Assembly (NCBI GenBank): GCA_905478995.1
Contig: CAJQKT010000028.1
Location: 11,152-75,151 of the forward strand
From: an uncultured Pseudomonadales bacterium
GTDB lineage: Bacteria > Pseudomonadota > Gammaproteobacteria > Pseudomonadales > UBA7434
Direction of reading: 5' to 3'
DNA length: 64,000 nt
Below the pieces are notes generated by a model that had not been told where the DNA came from, did no database searches, and worked only from the letters and a program-made list of their open reading frames with translations. Position numbers and translations under genes: made by a program. Below are positions 18,594 through 35,474 of the stretch, piece by piece (the stretch's first letter is position 1; each line of letters opens with the position of its first letter).

Positions 18594-19967
18594 CTAAGCG
18601 AGCGCCAACTCATCCTCTTCTTCGGCCACTACCGTTCGCTTGCGTGTTTTTCCCGGTATACCAATATGTAGCAATGTGGTTATTTCAGCTCTAGGCAAGG
18701 CTTCACTAAGATAAAAACCCTGGATTGAATCGCAGCCTAGTTCTTGCAGTAGTTCAACATGTTCTACCTTCTCAACGCCCTCAGCAATAACGCGCATATC
18801 GAGCGCGTGTGCCACATCAATAATAGCTTTGGTAATGGCCACATCAACGCTGCTTCCTATTAGACCTTTAATAAACATTTGATCTATTTTTAAAATATCG
18901 ACGGGTAGATTTTTTAATAACTTGAAGGTTGAATAGCCCGTGCCAAAATCGTCAATAGCAATTTCAATACCCATAGCTCGCAAGCCGGCCAATGTGTCTG
19001 AGGTTTTGTCGAGCGTATCAATTAATAGCGATTCGGTCAGTTCAATCACTAGTTGTTGCGGAGGAAAACCGGTGCGCTTAAGAATACGCTTGATAACCAC
19101 CAACATATCGTTACGAATAAGCTGTTTAGCCGATAGGTTAACGGCTATCTTGGCGTTGGGCACGCCGTCTTCTATCCAGCGGGCACCATGACGACAGGCT
19201 GTCTCTAATACCATTTCGCCAATACTTGAAATTAAACCCGCACTCTCGGCAATAGGAATAAATTCTGCCGGCGGTATCATACCCAGCTCATCATGCTCCC
19301 AGCGAACCAACGCCTCGAGTGCATTGATTTGGCCGGTAGCTAAATCCATTTTCGGTTGGTAGTGAACAGTAAGGTCTTTACGGGCAATGGCATGTCGTAA
19401 TTCAATTTCTATATTGAGGCGGCGCAGTAATGCGCCATTAGAATGCCCGCGAGTAAAAAATTTAATACCGTCGCCGCCAATTTCTTTAGCACCATGTAAT
19501 GCAGTGAGTGCTTGGTGCAACAAAATTTGTTCGTTATCGGCCTTGCTGGGGTATACGCTAACCCCCATACTTGCGGTGGCGACTAACTCTTGGTCGTCGA
19601 TGTATGCTGGCTTGCGAATCACGTTGAGCAGCCGGTTGCCTAGTTGGCGCAGCTGAGATGAATTGCTAACATTTTCGGCGAGTACCGCAAACTCATCAGA
19701 GCCCACATGTACCAATACATGATCGCCATTCAGAGCATGTGCAAGGCGTTCATGAATAACGTCGACTAACTGCTGGCCGACTTCAGGGCCAAGTGTTGTG
19801 GTAATGGTGTTGAAGCGATCGAGGTCTATAAATAGCAGCGCCAGAGCTTGTTTGCGCAGCCTAGCTTTTGCAACTGCCAACTGTAAGCGCTGTCGAATAT
19901 CAACGCGGCCCGCTAGCAACGAGGCGTTTTCAAAGACTGAAGCGTTTATCAGGGATCTTGCACTCAA
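18594..19967 (-). CDS. Cytoplasmic degenerate-GGDEF / EAL protein (probable c-di-GMP phosphodiesterase)
   Basis: GGDEF-domain core with a degenerate 'GSDEF'. EAL domain has 'EALVRW', 'DDFGTGYS', 'KIDQMF' and 'EGVE'. No TM or sensor domain upstream. Confidence 0.85.
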   Translation of the reverse strand: MSARSLINASVFENASLLAGRVDIRQRLQLAVAKARLRKQALALLFIDLDRFNTITTTLGPEVGQQLVDVIHERLAHALNGDHVLVHVGSDEFAVLAENVSNSSQLRQLGNRLLNVIRKPAYIDDQELVATASMGVSVYPSKADNEQILLHQALTALHGAKEIGGDGIKFFTRGHSNGALLRRLNIEIELRHAIARKDLTVHYQPKMDLATGQINALEALVRWEHDELGMIPPAEFIPIAESAGLISSIGEMVLETACRHGARWIEDGVPNAKIAVNLSAKQLIRNDMLVVIKRILKRTGFPPQQLVIELTESLLIDTLDKTSDTLAGLRAMGIEIAIDDFGTGYSTFKLLKNLPVDILKIDQMFIKGLIGSSVDVAITKAIIDVAHALDMRVIAEGVEKVEHVELLQELGCDSIQGFYLSEALPRAEITTLLHIGIPGKTRKRTVVAEEEDELALA

Positions 19968-29980: not shown

Positions 29981-30583
29981 ATGCCAACCATGATTCCATC
30001 AGTTAGTGATTCGTTACGCAATCAGTTTTTGATAGCGACACACTGTCTTGAGACGGGCATTTTTAAGTCGAGTGTCACTTATATTTGTGAACACAATGAA
30101 GATGGTGCCATGGGCATCATTATTAATAGGCCTTCCAGCTTGAGCTTGCAAGATATTCTCACTGATGTTTGCGAAAGCAATGCTGCTACGCCGAACCCAG
30201 TAGAGAATACTGCACCGGTAATGGTGGGTGGACCGGTTGGTTTAGAACGCGGTTTCGTACTCCATCAATTAACCGATGATGAAGATGCTTCTTGTTGGTC
30301 TTCTAGTCTGCATGTCACAAAGCGAATCGTTTTAACGGGCTCTAAAGATATTTTGCTTGCTATAAATGAAGGGCGCGGGCCGCATAATTACCTCGTGGTT
30401 TTAGGCTATGCAGGTTGGGAGGCCGGTCAGCTAGAGCAAGAGCTCGCCGATAATGCCTGGCTCAACACGCCTGCTAATCCAACTATATTGTTTGATACCC
30501 CTTTCCATCAGCGCGCCAATGCAGCCGCTAATTTGCTAGGCATTGATTTAGCATCGTTGGCTACCATGACTGGCAAGGCTTAG
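29981..30583 (+). CDS. yqgE: YqgE/AlgH family protein (UPF0301)
   Basis: 'HNEDGAMGIIINRPS' and 'GWEAGQLEQEL..N.WL' are signatures of UPF0301. Confidence 0.88.
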   Translation: MPTMIPSVSDSLRNQFLIATHCLETGIFKSSVTYICEHNEDGAMGIIINRPSSLSLQDILTDVCESNAATPNPVENTAPVMVGGPVGLERGFVLHQLTDDEDASCWSSSLHVTKRIVLTGSKDILLAINEGRGPHNYLVVLGYAGWEAGQLEQELADNAWLNTPANPTILFDTPFHQRANAAANLLGIDLASLATMTGKA

Positions 30584-30895
30584 CCGCTTAGATTACAGAT
30601 ATTGACTGCTTGTCCAATGATCGCTTAGCTTCGCCCCATTTCAGTGCGCCCCATTTATACTCGCTTAATATTTCCCAAGCCCTCTCATGAGTTTCTTTCT
30701 TGTTCGTTTTCGCCTATTTTCGGCGCACTTGTCATAACTGCCCTCTTTAAACTGTGATCCATGCACGTTGTTGCCATTTTTTTTAGAGATTGAAGGCACA
30801 AAGTCAAGAATTCTGAATAAACCCACTACACTTTACCCAGAGAGGCAATAAATGAATGCCTCCATTAACCAACGACCTAGTAGTCAGAGCACCTT

Positions 30896-31960
30896 ATGAA
30901 GCAAAATATTATTCCATCGCGGGGGCACGCTTTCGGTTGCACAGCGGTGCTAGCAAGAATCTTTAGCACAGGCATTATCGCCATTGGAGCGAGTTTATTA
31001 TCGGTGCTAGCTGCCGCCGAGCGTCCTGTAGACTCGTCAACGAGTTGGATGACCGATAATACTCGTGTTGCTCTTGACATGGCGGCGCGCCAAATCCATC
31101 CAGCTGGCGGCTCTGATCAAAACATATTTTTCGTTGGGCTCGACTATCACCGCGTGGTTACCGCTAATAATCGAGATTGGGCCACTATTGTTTTCCAGCC
31201 AACCTTTGCAAAACTCAACCATATCGCAAAGCCACCGCCCTATTTTTCAGACGGCAATGGTAAGGACCTCCAGTGGCGGTACGCTTATATTAACTATACT
31301 GGGCTATCTAAGGGTGCTTTCAATATAAAAGCCGGCCATATCGAAGTGCCCTTTGGCGCCGAAAGTAATGAGCGACTTAATGGCGGCGCGCTTCGGCAAT
31401 TGGTTTCCGATATACAAAAGAAATTAGACTGGGGCGGCAGCATTAACGGCGTCGTTGATTCCTTTGAATATGAAGTGGCTGTAACGCGTGGTAGTACTAA
31501 CGATTGGGATACGAAAAACCCAACCGAAATTTTTAGCGGTAGGCTTGGTTACTATGGCCAGCAAAAATATGATTTTGGCGTGTCCTTCATCTATGGTGAT
31601 TACCGCGTTGGTAAGGCAGTAGATGAAACGCTCAACCACCGCGTTGGCCTAGATTATCGATACTACTATCGGAACTATACCTGGCTTGCAGAGATTTCTA
31701 TTGGCGAAAATGGCGAGAGTCAAACGCAATATGGCATGACCGAGTTGTCATGGAAAACACCGTCTGAGGATTTATTTTTGTACGGCAGGGTTAGACATCA
31801 GCGTAAAACGCTAGTTTTCCCATCGGCTGAGTCTACTATGTTTGCGGGTCTGCGCTGGACACCATTAAGAAATGCCGACGTAGAGCTTCAGTACACAAAG
31901 GATCTTGATAGCGCTAAAGCGCAAGAAAAAGTTGAGGCACAATTAAGGTTTAGACTTTAG
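30896..31960 (+). CDS. Outer-membrane beta-barrel, porin O/P-like
   Basis: N-terminal signal-like hydrophobic stretch ending 'LAAAE'. Alternating amphipathic strands. 'YAYINYTG...IKAGHIEVPFGAE' resembles the phosphate-selective porin O/P family pattern. Aromatic-rich C-terminal strand 'AQLRFRL'. Confidence 0.6.
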   Translation: MKQNIIPSRGHAFGCTAVLARIFSTGIIAIGASLLSVLAAAERPVDSSTSWMTDNTRVALDMAARQIHPAGGSDQNIFFVGLDYHRVVTANNRDWATIVFQPTFAKLNHIAKPPPYFSDGNGKDLQWRYAYINYTGLSKGAFNIKAGHIEVPFGAESNERLNGGALRQLVSDIQKKLDWGGSINGVVDSFEYEVAVTRGSTNDWDTKNPTEIFSGRLGYYGQQKYDFGVSFIYGDYRVGKAVDETLNHRVGLDYRYYYRNYTWLAEISIGENGESQTQYGMTELSWKTPSEDLFLYGRVRHQRKTLVFPSAESTMFAGLRWTPLRNADVELQYTKDLDSAKAQEKVEAQLRFRL

Positions 31961-32011
31961 TGCCACAAGATAAACGGCACACTATTTTTATAGCATCCCG
32001 GAGTTTATAGC

Positions 32012-32614
32012 ATGCTAATGCTCAAAAAAAATCACATCAATCGAGGCTTAGCTATTGGTATTTTGCTGATGTCGGCACCTTTATTTGCACAGCCATTTTG
32101 CTCGCTGCGCGACCCCGTTTCTATCATTGATAAAATGGTACCGCAGAGCGACTCTTTTCGCTCTAGCGTTGTCAACATCAACAACAAAATGCGTAACGAG
32201 TTGATTGCCGAGACCGGCATCACGATGCATCGTCAAGAGCTTGGCTATCACACGCTATACCATGTTCATGATACAGGTGAAAGCGAAACTATTATTCACG
32301 TCCGGCCTGAAGCAACACGCTGGGGCATTACTGAAATTGCATGGTCTATCTCAAGCGACGGACAAATTATTGGCTATGAGTTTCAACGCTGTCGTGCACG
32401 TTCTTGTGACGATTTGAATAGCGCAAGCCTCTTCGCCAATGTGCCTGTCTTAGATGGCGCCTCATTGGCAAAATTGCTGGGCGATGATCATAAGCATCTA
32501 TCTCCCCAAGGCCTTGAGCAATTAACTTTTCCTGCCGGGAGTGACGCGCTGGTTGTTTCCGTTATTCGCTCCGGTATAAAAGCCGCTGCGCTGATTAAGC
32601 ATACCAACAGTTAA
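32012..32614 (+). CDS. Secreted (periplasmic) protein of unknown function, weakly FMN_bind-like
   Basis: Signal peptide 'GILLMSAPLFA|QP'. 200 aa with 3 Cys. 'WGITEIAWSISSDGQIIGYEF' and C-terminal 'GSDALVVSVIRSGIKAA' loosely recall FMN-binding domains. No confident family assignment. Confidence 0.55.
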   Translation: MLMLKKNHINRGLAIGILLMSAPLFAQPFCSLRDPVSIIDKMVPQSDSFRSSVVNINNKMRNELIAETGITMHRQELGYHTLYHVHDTGESETIIHVRPEATRWGITEIAWSISSDGQIIGYEFQRCRARSCDDLNSASLFANVPVLDGASLAKLLGDDHKHLSPQGLEQLTFPAGSDALVVSVIRSGIKAAALIKHTNS

Positions 32615-32630
32615 TCGGCCTAGACTCGCG

Positions 32631-34763
32631 ATGCGAATTTCTCATGTGCTTTTAGCGCCTATTTTTTTGGCTAGTATTGTTATCATGATCAGCTCATACG
32701 CTGTTTATTATGGCAATCAGACGGGCAAAAATTTAGAGTATCAATATCAAACCTTAAACGATAATGAATTGCGTTTTAATGCGCTGGCGGCCGAATATTC
32801 GACTATCCTAGTGTTTGCCGATCTAATTGTCGGCTCTGACCAAGGGTTTTTGATTGAGCGTTATCAAAATCAATCCAAAGTCTTACGAAAACAAATAAAA
32901 ATTGTTTTGCTGGCCGATAATTGGTGTTGTTCACACACAGATACCGTTAATTTACACTCTTCGTTAATCACAATGGAGGGCGTTATTGCTACGGCTGTTT
33001 CTTCCGATTTACAAACGAATCCTGCTTTGCAAACGGAATATTTAAATCGCTTAGATGATGCTGCCGTTGTTGGCTTGCAAAGCCTTGACAACATACAGGT
33101 CGAAGTCAAGGCGCTTATCGGCGCGCATAGTTTGTTGTTGGCAGAGAGTCGCACTGCCTACCGTTTTGGCCTGCTAGGCCTTGGTTTAATTGATTTGATT
33201 GCGATTATAGGCTCGTGGATATGGGTATCTACTCACGTTAGCCGTCCGGTTAAAACCTTAGTAAGCGCTTCGAATAAAGCATTTATAAGCGGTCATTTTC
33301 ATAACACTAATAATACCGGCCCGGTAGAATTAAAAACGCTTAGTAATGCTTTTGAGCGCTTGACTAACCATCTGGGTGATCAGCTTGAGGCTGAGCGAAA
33401 TAAGGTTAAGAAGCAGGAGTTGGAGGCGCGGAATGAGCTGTGGAAGTTGGCGCATACCGATGTACTCACACAAGGCCCAAATCGATCTCAGTTCAACCAG
33501 ACCTTTCAAGAGCTTATTGCCAAGTGCAATGCCAATAAAGAGACGTTTGACATTTTTATAGTTGATATTAATGAGTTTAAGTCGATTAATGACACGTTAG
33601 GGCACATGGCAGGTGATGAGCTATTAGTTGCAATCACTCAAGTGTTAGAGAAGGTTGTTGGCGATAACGGTCTGAGCGCTCGGCTAGGAGGTGATGAATT
33701 CGGTTTGTTAGTCACTCCGGCTATGCAAGAGCCAGCTTTAGAAGATTTTATCAAAAACATTATTGACGGTTGTAACGTGCTTACATTTTCTGATGGAATG
33801 CGGCATGGCGTAGACGTTAGTATAGGTGTCGCAACATTTCCTCACGACGCTAAAGATATAGGATCTTTATTAAAAGCTGCCGATACGGCGATGTACCGAG
33901 CTAAAAGAGATAGCGTAGCGGGCAGCTGTTGGTTGCATTACCTGCCTCAAATGGATACCGAGCGGCAGCGGCGGGCTTGGCTGCGCAACTTAGTAGCCGC
34001 CGGCATCGAGAACAAAGAATTTGAATTATATTGTCAGCCTATTATAGATGCATCGACCCGTAAGGTGGTCAGTGGTGAATGTTTGTTGCGATGGCCGAGT
34101 GGTCCAGAGCATGTGACCATACCTGAAATCATTAATATTGCGGAGACGAGCGGGCTAATTCTAGAGCTCACCGTTGAGATTTTGGAACAGGCTTGCTCGT
34201 TTATTGCAGCATTGGAGGCACATGGATTATCTACGAGCGTGGCTGTTAATATATCCGCCGTCCAATTTAAATATCAAAACATAGTTTCGATATTAAAGGC
34301 GGCGATTGAAAAATCGAATATAAGCGCTGATCGTCTTGTCATTGAAATCACAGAATCTGTTTTTGTTGGTAGTTTCGCACGAGTAAAACAAACGTTTAGT
34401 GAGCTTCAGGATTTGGGTATTGATATTGCAATTGATGATTTTGGCACTGGCTATTCAAGTCTTAATTATCTCAACGAGCTCAACGCTGACTGGCTCAAAA
34501 TAGACCAATCGTTCATTAACAACATCGATAAGCCTGATGGTGAAAGGTTTGTTTATGCGTTCACTGAGCTTAGCCGTGCCGTGGGTACGAAGATGGTCGC
34601 AGAGGGCGTAGAAACGTTAAAGCAGCTGCAGATTCTGCAAAAACTGAACGTTGAACGAATACAAGGCTACTATATTTCAAAACCCATTCCGAAAGCCGAA
34701 TTTATTAAGTTTGCTCTTAATTCTCAGCAAGTTCGAACGGGCAGTGTTACAAAGCTGCGCTAA
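32631..34763 (+). CDS. Inner-membrane sensor: TM / helical periplasmic domain / TM / HAMP / GGDEF / EAL
   Basis: Two hydrophobic segments (res ~5-25 and ~176-198) flank a ~150 aa helical domain. HAMP-like linker. Intact 'GGDEF' ('RLGGDEFGLL'). EAL domain with the variant 'ECLLRW', then 'DDFGTGYS', 'KIDQSF', 'EGVE' and 'QGYYISKP'. Confidence 0.88.
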   Translation: MRISHVLLAPIFLASIVIMISSYAVYYGNQTGKNLEYQYQTLNDNELRFNALAAEYSTILVFADLIVGSDQGFLIERYQNQSKVLRKQIKIVLLADNWCCSHTDTVNLHSSLITMEGVIATAVSSDLQTNPALQTEYLNRLDDAAVVGLQSLDNIQVEVKALIGAHSLLLAESRTAYRFGLLGLGLIDLIAIIGSWIWVSTHVSRPVKTLVSASNKAFISGHFHNTNNTGPVELKTLSNAFERLTNHLGDQLEAERNKVKKQELEARNELWKLAHTDVLTQGPNRSQFNQTFQELIAKCNANKETFDIFIVDINEFKSINDTLGHMAGDELLVAITQVLEKVVGDNGLSARLGGDEFGLLVTPAMQEPALEDFIKNIIDGCNVLTFSDGMRHGVDVSIGVATFPHDAKDIGSLLKAADTAMYRAKRDSVAGSCWLHYLPQMDTERQRRAWLRNLVAAGIENKEFELYCQPIIDASTRKVVSGECLLRWPSGPEHVTIPEIINIAETSGLILELTVEILEQACSFIAALEAHGLSTSVAVNISAVQFKYQNIVSILKAAIEKSNISADRLVIEITESVFVGSFARVKQTFSELQDLGIDIAIDDFGTGYSSLNYLNELNADWLKIDQSFINNIDKPDGERFVYAFTELSRAVGTKMVAEGVETLKQLQILQKLNVERIQGYYISKPIPKAEFIKFALNSQQVRTGSVTKLR

Positions 34764-34877
34764 CTGAACAGGCACCTCTGTAACTTGCAGTAAGATCCTA
34801 CGGTTATGCAGAGTTCTTTTCTTTTGGCATTTAATCTGCGCCTTTTAAGGATGTCTTTACCATGGGTATTAAAGCTG

Positions 34878-34905
34878 CTGACAGCTTTAAGCATAGGGTT
34901 ATAAT
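34878..34905 (+). promoter_or_regulatory. Possible sigma70 promoter for ruvX
   Basis: CTGACA (34878-34883), 16-nt spacer, TATAAT (34900-34905). Lies ~130 nt upstream of ruvX. Confidence 0.3.
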
Positions 34906-35036
34906 GTTTGCCAGCGATTTAATTGTAATCGAGCACTGCGACGTCATAACAGTAAAGAGTCTGTTGATGAAGATACGGCCTAGTCAATACCGGATCAGCG
35001 ACTGAAAAACAGACGACCCTCACGAGCAAGAATTGA

Positions 35037-35474
35037 ATGAGTAAAAGCGGCTTATTATTGGGTTTCGATTTCGGCTTACGTCAGATAGGTGTTTCGGTTG
35101 GGCAAACGCTAACGGCCTCGGCTAGACCCTTATGTATTCTGGATGCAAGGTCAGGTCAGCCTAACTGGCAGCAGGTGACTGCACTTATTGATGAATGGAT
35201 GCCCGATTACTTAGTGGTGGGCTTACCACTGCATATGGATGGTAGTGAGGGGACAAGTGCGCAGTTAGCACGTAAGTTTGCTGCACGCCTTCACGGGCGG
35301 TTGGGTTGCAGGGTTGAGTTACAGGACGAGCGACTGTCCTCAAGTGAGGCGCGTTCACAGTTAAAAGACATGCATACAACTAACGGACATAGCGCGAGAG
35401 TGGCACACAATAAAATTGATGCTGTGGCGGCTGCACTGATTTTGCAAAGTTGGTTAGACAGCGGCAACAGTTGA
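35037..35474 (+). CDS. ruvX: Holliday-junction-resolvase-like pre-16S rRNA nuclease RuvX (YqgF)
   Basis: N-terminal 'LLGFDFGLRQIGVSVGQ' and 'VVGLPLHMDGSEG' YqgF signatures. 145 aa. Confidence 0.9.
   Translation: MSKSGLLLGFDFGLRQIGVSVGQTLTASARPLCILDARSGQPNWQQVTALIDEWMPDYLVVGLPLHMDGSEGTSAQLARKFAARLHGRLGCRVELQDERLSSSEARSQLKDMHTTNGHSARVAHNKIDAVAAALILQSWLDSGNS

Follow-up and report, generated by a model that had tools for sequence, protein, structure and literature searches.

A conserved three-gene cassette, predicted to span the cell envelope, inserted between yqgE and ruvX in an uncultured Pseudomonadales bacterium

Three co-oriented genes lie between yqgE and ruvX in the genome of an uncultured Pseudomonadales bacterium (GenBank assembly GCA_905478995.1, contig CAJQKT010000028.1, positions 11,152 to 75,151 of the forward strand; this whole stretch of 64,000 nucleotides is called the window below). 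They encode a barrel protein predicted for the outer membrane (B), a secreted protein predicted to be periplasmic (P), and a predicted inner-membrane sensor with GGDEF and EAL domains (S). The insert is a conserved unit of three genes and no accidental neighborhood, and the cassette is an output-agnostic input module that is paired more often with histidine kinases (HKs) than with GGDEF-EAL proteins. B, P, and S very probably form one functional sensory unit; as to how they would work, a relay in which a porin supplies a periplasmic binder that acts on a transducer is the reading favored here, with a confidence slightly short of an even call. An initial annotation made from the sequence alone had outlined the layout. 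The list of open reading frames (ORFs) reproduces its coordinates for all three genes exactly, and its 312-bp leader, intergenic gaps of 51 and 16 nt, and 4.45-kb separation of the flanking genes (exactly 4,453 bp) were likewise recovered. The genes and their flanks are as follows.

29981..30583, + strand: yqgE/algH, upstream flank, outside the cassette (Pfam DUF179, 3.5e-47; NCBIfam YqgE/AlgH NF001266, 217.6 bits against a cut-off of 198)
30896..31960, + strand: B, 354 aa, predicted outer-membrane 16-strand porin-fold barrel, with signal peptide and, inside the barrel, a loop of L3 type
32012..32614, + strand: P, 200 aa, predicted secreted periplasmic protein with an NqrC/RnfG (FMN_bind) fold, without the flavinylation motif
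32631..34763, + strand: S, 710 aa, predicted inner-membrane protein, first transmembrane segment/helical periplasmic domain/second transmembrane segment/HAMP/GGDEF/EAL (from Pfam, hydropathy, and motifs)
35037..35474, + strand: ruvX/yqgF, downstream flank, outside the cassette (Pfam RuvX, 5.1e-40; TIGR00250, 127.8 bits)

In word-indexed protein searches B and P look like near-orphans, with 3 and 11 clusters. This is an artifact of sensitivity, given that an exhaustive profile search returned 349 representative P clusters, 128 of them below 1e-30. Scanning metagenomes with a 40-sequence P profile yielded 80 loci, each scored with dedicated profiles for B, P, and the sensor (SENS). Co-occurrence is near-obligate: a sensor gene stands immediately downstream of P in 66/66 assessable metagenomic loci, and B adjoins in 73/73, so that the grouping noted in the window recurs well outside this genome. 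The window ORFs match profiles built partly from other loci at 5e-148 (B), 1e-77 (P), and 6e-94 (SENS). The genes run B-P-S in 61 loci but P-S-B in 12, and the permuted order, found in a sub-lineage, indicates that the linkage outlasted a rearrangement. The idea that three unrelated genes were inserted together with no functional link is effectively refuted by adjacency of this completeness across several phyla, at ~30% protein identity and in two conserved orders. The P-S-B loci are L104, L109, L121, L123, L128, L133, L148, L150, L152, L153, L172, and L179; sensors of this sub-lineage are longer kinases of ~810 aa.

What varies between cassettes is the output. Complete sensors end in an HK in 30 cases, in GGDEF plus EAL in 13, in GGDEF in 3, and in no recognized output in 2. 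In another Pseudomonadales metagenome-assembled genome (MAG; L001, L002, the latter from GCA_029282175.1) the same trio sits elsewhere on the chromosome; at a further locus (L007), P is followed by an HK whose N-terminal region shares homology with that of the GGDEF-EAL proteins. Other sampled contexts have, in this order, a B-like gene, a P-like gene, and a sensor, which is a hybrid kinase in a Phycisphaerae MAG, a PAS-GGDEF-EAL protein, or a plain kinase. B, P, and the sensor N-terminal region are each homologous across cassettes from Pseudomonadales, Phycisphaerae, and Myxococcota MAGs while the outputs differ, which is the signature of a shared input module. The initial annotation had described a module for cyclic di-GMP (c-di-GMP); this has to be widened, in that the unit itself is not specific to c-di-GMP.

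The site of insertion is unusual, as had been remarked. A survey of the junction with one genome per species (a YqgE scan giving 80 loci, with ruvX located by tblastn) found both genes in 79 species besides that of the window. In 78 of these the spacing is -4 to 132 bp; the sole other species with an insert, L014, carries B, P, and a sensor in 4,458 bp. L014 is a MAG of a Pseudomonadales sister species (94% YqgE identity), collinear with the window at 85% nucleotide identity, and the next relative (L015, 64% YqgE identity) has no insert. All six same-species contigs inspected have it. The insertion is confined to the window species and its sister, and the separation of yqgE from ruvX is accordingly not universal in the order. 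No direct or inverted repeats were found at its ends in a search of 30400-35200, and the composition of the insert is that of its host; together these give no evidence for a transposon or recent island, and that origin was set aside.

The noncoding ends of the insert were compared with those of L014.

30584..30895, + strand: leader, 312 bp; conserved block, 30733-30797; small hairpin, 30842-30862
34764..35036, + strand: trailer, 273 bp, with a sigma-70-like promoter at 34878-34905

A promoter scan places CTGACA-N16-TATAAT in the trailer, with 11 of 12 consensus matches; this block is perfectly conserved in L014, where the trailer as a whole is 66% identical. The promoter probably drives ruvX, the insertion having split the yqgE-ruvX operon. 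The locus is a clean natural case of a sensory module landing within a conserved operon, with expression of the downstream gene apparently restored by a new promoter.

The sensor can be followed from its predicted periplasmic input to its output domains.

32712..33164, + strand: periplasmic domain of S, aa 28-178, helical and unclassified, homologous across GGDEF-EAL and HK cassettes
33165..33410, + strand: second transmembrane segment and HAMP linker, aa 179-260 (profile match to the corresponding NarQ region, 1.7e-5)
33450..33911, + strand: GGDEF domain, aa 274-427 (Pfam, 1.4e-37), motif intact at aa 353
33999..34685, + strand: EAL domain, aa 457-685 (Pfam, 7.9e-59), with the variant 'ECL' at aa 483

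Hydrophobic segments at aa 1-27 and 179-201 bracket the predicted periplasmic domain, which belongs to no Pfam family and matches only generic helical bundles in the PDB. Its first helix contains an invariant D64-L65 motif. In the linker that follows, P206, G230-P231, and E233 are invariant, and Pfam HAMP is detected in two of eight relatives. No RxxD I-site occurs anywhere in aa 251-440; this, the intact GGDEF motif, and the 'ECL' variant were each as first described. The EAL domain is predicted to be catalytically competent on the strength of its DDFGTG (602), KID (623), and EGVE (658) motifs, and S would be bifunctional, both domains having their catalytic motifs.

Architecture of this kind has precedents. 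In NspS-MbaA of Vibrio cholerae (PMC8967002) and PruR-DcpA of Agrobacterium (PMC11194511), the enzyme likewise consists of transmembrane segment, periplasmic domain, transmembrane segment, GGDEF, and EAL, and both catalytic domains may be active. Whether synthesis or hydrolysis prevails is expected to depend on a periplasmic ligand-binding protein encoded alongside, and the activities of MbaA and DcpA are switched by these partners (PMC8967002, PMC11194511). The partners differ in fold: NspS is a periplasmic binding protein (PMC8967002), PruR is pterin-binding (PMC11194511), and P is predicted to have the NqrC/RnfG fold. Neither system has a dedicated outer-membrane component, and the S periplasmic domain is unclassified.

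The flow of information could also be imagined in reverse, as in LapD-LapG, with the cytoplasmic domains receiving c-di-GMP and the periplasmic domain controlling a P that acts on B or on a surface substrate. S is LapD-like in overall architecture, and the NCBIfam LapD model matches aa 200-687, though at 153 bits against an equivalog cut-off of 1020 (NF045673). Its GGDEF and EAL catalytic motifs are intact, where a LapD-type receptor would have degenerate ones; most cassettes carry HKs, which are outputs and not nucleotide receptors; and P has no protease-like fold. An inside-out arrangement is thus highly improbable.

P was originally described as a secreted protein without a confident family. 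The absence of a family is borne out, in that neither P nor 39 relatives match any Pfam or NCBIfam family; its fold, on the other hand, is recognizable. The AlphaFold2 (AF2) model (pLDDT 84.8, pTM 0.81) retrieves NqrC or RnfG as all of its top 15 Foldseek matches in the PDB, at probabilities of 0.57-1.0 and template modeling (TM) scores up to 0.51, the next match having E>1. P resembles NqrC and RnfG (PDB 8rb8_G, 4u9s) in overall fold and would, like them, face the outside of the inner membrane. Those proteins are membrane-anchored subunits of respiratory complexes that bear FMN covalently at an S/T-G-A-T motif, whereas P has a cleavable signal peptide and a different invariant set of Cys, His, Arg, and Glu, and is always encoded beside a sensor. 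None of 40 P family members matches Pfam FMN_bind at E<=5. The ApbE flavinylation motif, (D-x-x-)[S/T]-G-A-[S/T], occurs in domain 1 of only one of 153 P sequences, at a non-homologous position; in its place at the helix start is R-S/C-A/G-L-K-T.

Conservation across 153 relatives of ~30% identity indicates where P may act. Invariant residues are C30, L32, P35, E76, H80, and W111; R33, G78, R98, E100, G105, E108, Q125, R126, R128, and K190 are at least 96% conserved, and H73, H96, and C127 reach 90-94%. About 15 polar residues are invariant or nearly so, and they alternate on adjacent strands (H96/R98/E100 and Q125/R126/C127/R128), a constellation typical of a binding or cofactor site. A small-x-small cleavage site directly before (F/Y)C is present in ~90% of relatives, the window protein having the rarer A-x-P variant; this canonical site supports a periplasmic location and would leave the invariant Cys at about residue 2 of the mature protein. 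C30 is invariant even in relatives that lack C127, and its role therefore goes beyond that of one partner in a structural disulfide.

These features invite a different reading of P, as a redox or metal sensor in the periplasm. P would hold a redox-active group by means of its N-terminal Cys, His73, His80, His96, and Cys127; the group could be a metal ion or a flavin, the latter linked to Cys or held without a covalent bond. It would report the redox state of the periplasm or exterior, or the availability of metal, to S, with B merely giving access. Such a role would suit the fold of flavin-carrying electron-transfer subunits, the full conservation of C30 and H80 and near-full conservation of H73, H96, and C127, the retention of C30 without C127 so close to the mature N-terminus, and the alternation of S187 with Cys, which replaces it in 24% of relatives. 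The missing flavinylation motif argues against a flavin-threonyl link, and P has no twin-arginine signal, which makes a cofactor pre-assembled in the cytoplasm unlikely. The many invariant Arg and Lys residues suit an anionic ligand at least equally well. The reading is possible, if unlikely. Its strongest form would make P a new class of periplasmic co-sensor, an electron-carrier fold re-purposed so that Cys and the His cluster hold a flavin or metal; this we regard as a long shot. If true, B-P-S would be a dedicated, phylum-spanning sensor of extracellular redox or of flavin or metal availability that feeds two-component or c-di-GMP signaling.

Thiol exchange between P and S was considered in the same connection. 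The window sensor has vicinal Cys99-Cys100 (32925-32930) in its periplasmic domain, and co-variation of this motif with Cys132 of P was tested. The CC motif is restricted to a small clade (4 of 53 distinct loci), most sensors have no periplasmic Cys, and a general disulfide relay between P and S was rejected. The pair may be a clade-specific redox or metal feature.

Most of the distant P relatives are ~340 aa long (P0018, P0019, P0021, and ~90 others; for example L094, 8001-9032). They have a second domain, an internal copy of the first that has degenerated (hhalign probability 87.6%), without the invariant polar residues and with a conserved C-terminal Cys.

B had been called porin O/P-like, which proves weakly right. 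The AF2 model (pLDDT 59.5, good in the C-terminal half) is an all-beta meander of exactly 16 strands, counted back from the C-terminus and by parity. Its Foldseek matches are OmpC, VhChiP, OmpU, OprP, and Omp32 (E 1e-10 to 1e-9, TM score 0.55-0.6), OprP (2o4v_A) being hit number 9 at E 9e-10 and TM score 0.56. Porin_O_P is the commonest sub-threshold Pfam match among B relatives (7/45), with best E-values of 1.6e-3 in the 45-member scan and 2.1e-4 in an eight-member scan. The window protein itself has no Pfam or NCBIfam match, Porin_O_P being absent even at E<=5, and the B profile found no porin among PDB sequences. B shares the 16-strand barrel fold with the phosphate-selective porins OprP/OprO (PF07396; PDB 2o4v), in which an arginine ladder confers anion selectivity, but general porins (OmpC, OmpU, VhChiP) fit the model as well or better, and the relationship to Porin_O_P is remote. 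The B profile also touched 129-aa Bacteroides 'putative periplasmic proteins' (4dsd, E 0.007; 4poi, E 0.13; range 0.007-1.3), probably by chance; these matches fall on the YEVALTRGSGNEW...GRIG segment at aa ~185-254 (31448-31657).

Strands 5 and 6 of the model are joined by a helix-containing loop (aa 159-176), which comes after an invariant GH(I/F)E(L/V)PFG(L/A)E motif (aa 147-156). The loop after the PFG motif corresponds in position and character to the L3 constriction loop of classical porins, and a 16-strand barrel with an internal constriction loop is accordingly what the model, of moderate confidence, depicts. The L3- and L4-type loops are the best-conserved segments of B. Periplasmic turns in the model are only 2-5 residues long and leave little periplasmic surface. 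Taken together, B looks like a channel rather than a docking protein, insofar as the model can be relied on.

This anatomy bears on another account, a partner switch like that of YfiB-YfiR-YfiN (TpbB) of Pseudomonas aeruginosa and Escherichia coli. P would constitutively inhibit or activate S, and B would sense the state of the outer membrane or wall and sequester P, for example by letting P plug the barrel from the periplasm, so that the signal would be the state of the envelope and not an imported ligand. The likeness is one of layout: in both systems three genes supply one protein for each envelope compartment, and a periplasmic protein is thought to control an inner-membrane cyclase built of transmembrane segment, periplasmic domain, transmembrane segment, HAMP, and GGDEF (PMC3375315, PMC4887326). 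The strict linkage of B, P, and S and the absence of ligand-related genes nearby would also fit. YfiB, however, is a lipoprotein of the Pal/OmpA type. B is instead a porin-type barrel of 16 strands, and it has no periplasmic domain, no lipobox (its sole Cys is at aa 15), and no OmpA-family Pfam match. P has no YfiR family match. S reaches 151 bits with the DgcN/YfiN model (NF007423), whose cut-off is 325, over aa 198-425 (HAMP-GGDEF) only, and has an added EAL domain, while the B-P cassette also pairs with HKs. The three proteins are thus not homologous to their Yfi counterparts, as had been supposed from the outset. Conservation in B peaks in the L3- and L4-type loops and not on the periplasmic side, and the dense invariant polar site of P better suits a small molecule or cofactor than a pure protein interface. 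A Yfi-like switch is decidedly unlikely on these grounds. Among the alternatives it comes second in weight, after the redox or metal reading and ahead of the LapD-like one.

The relay from porin to periplasmic binder to transducer is favored over these for the channel-like anatomy of B, the pocket-like conservation of P, and the conservation of the input parts regardless of output. In outline, B would be a compact 16-strand porin-type channel of the outer membrane, through which a small, hydrophilic, perhaps anionic solute enters. Sec-dependent export and cleavage would put the invariant Cys of P at about its second residue, and P would capture this solute, or carry a cofactor responsive to it, in a site lined by Cys, His, Arg, and Glu on its NqrC/RnfG-type fold. 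Depending on its state, P would then dock on or leave the helical periplasmic domain of S, and the HAMP domain would relay this state to the cytoplasmic output. With the bifunctional GGDEF-EAL output predicted here, the signal would tilt c-di-GMP turnover toward synthesis or toward hydrolysis.

Several points weigh against this picture. The ligand, the cofactor, and the protein-protein contacts of the cassette are all predicted. The match of P to NqrC/RnfG is modest (E ~1e-3, TM score 0.4-0.5) and lacks sequence support, and the B model is of low confidence (pLDDT 59.5), especially at aa 105-164 (<50), which take in the lumen and the proposed start of L3. The 80 loci are not independent, ~53 of them having distinct P sequences, and the SENS profile includes the HAMP domain, so that part of the 66/66 could be generic HAMP matches; on this last point, the sensor blastp alignments extend through the periplasmic region. 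A general porin already admits most small solutes, which leaves the need for a dedicated channel unexplained.

Other systems embody the same logic with different parts. PahS-PahP-PahK/PahR of Cycloclasticus leads from an outer-membrane receptor or channel to a periplasmic binder and on to a sensor kinase (PMC10570129), and the Vibrio chitoporin, chitooligosaccharide-binding protein, and ChiS follow the channel-binder-kinase order proposed here (PMC3558487, PMC10667598). PahS, though, is a 687-aa, 22-strand TonB-dependent receptor (PMC10570129), and both binders, PahP and the chitooligosaccharide-binding protein, are of the classic solute-binding type; none of these has homology to B or P. The pah genes do not form one fixed cassette, as their distant locus tags attest (pahS Q91_0827, pahR Q91_1137; PMC10570129). 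PahS/PahP, a TonB-dependent receptor with a solute-binding protein, was accordingly dismissed as a match and is analogous only. The B-P-S cassette is best read as an accessory-protein-controlled, envelope-spanning sensor whose logic comes closest to that of YfiBNR, NspS-MbaA, PruR-DcpA, PahS/P/K, and the Vibrio chitoporin chain, and it has no input components homologous to theirs.

Sensors controlled by accessory proteins are a growing theme, and few known ones have a dedicated, co-inherited gene for each of the three envelope compartments. Neither a curated family nor a paper describing the B-P-S cassette was found, and literature searches turned up no FMN_bind/NqrC/RnfG-fold protein partnered with a sensor. 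B and P lie outside characterized families, and the public names of all relatives are 'hypothetical protein'. The cassette is distinctive in its strict three-part linkage across three or more phyla of bacteria, most of them marine and uncultured, in serving both HK and c-di-GMP outputs, and in having three input parts outside curated families. Identification of the signal would give function to hundreds of 'hypothetical' protein clusters and would reveal the periplasmic role of a flavin-carrier fold that has no flavinylation site; the signal might be an environmental cue important to abundant marine heterotrophs.

The remaining elements of the insert are small. The leader is 77% identical to that of L014 overall, with near-perfect blocks within, among them the 65-nt block at 30733-30797; its hairpin has a 6-bp stem (GAGGCA...TGCCTC). 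The leader may contain promoter or operator sites for the cassette. Rfam gave no match on leader and trailer at E<=1 and none on the whole window at gathering thresholds, which argues against any riboswitch, those for c-di-GMP included. Folding z-scores of leader and trailer segments are unremarkable (-1.5 to +1.0), so no structured element is claimed there; a hairpin with a T-run lies 3' of the sensor gene and would make a weak terminator at best. A 15-codon upstream ORF, MNASINQRPSSQSTL (30853-30900), overlaps the B start codon at its end as ATGA; it is probably not a functional leader peptide, as a 1-nt indel shifts its frame in L014.

Neighboring genes offer no clue to the ligand: no transporter or enzyme recurs across diverse loci, only further signaling proteins (15 loci), a pattern that counts in favor of the proposed relay. 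A 4HBT-family thioesterase gene directly follows the sensor gene in two unrelated cassettes (L001/L002, 10819-11214, - strand; L098, 8209-8607, + strand) and is not a recurrent neighbor in the wider set of loci. In these 15 loci (L007, 3-2102; L105, L108, L140, and others) the cassette has extra hybrid HKs or GGDEF/EAL proteins beside it, which suggests that the cassette feeds larger phosphorelay or c-di-GMP circuits. In the window, 11 kb upstream of the cassette, a 457-aa protein (18597-19967, - strand) has a strong EAL and a weak GGDEF-like domain.

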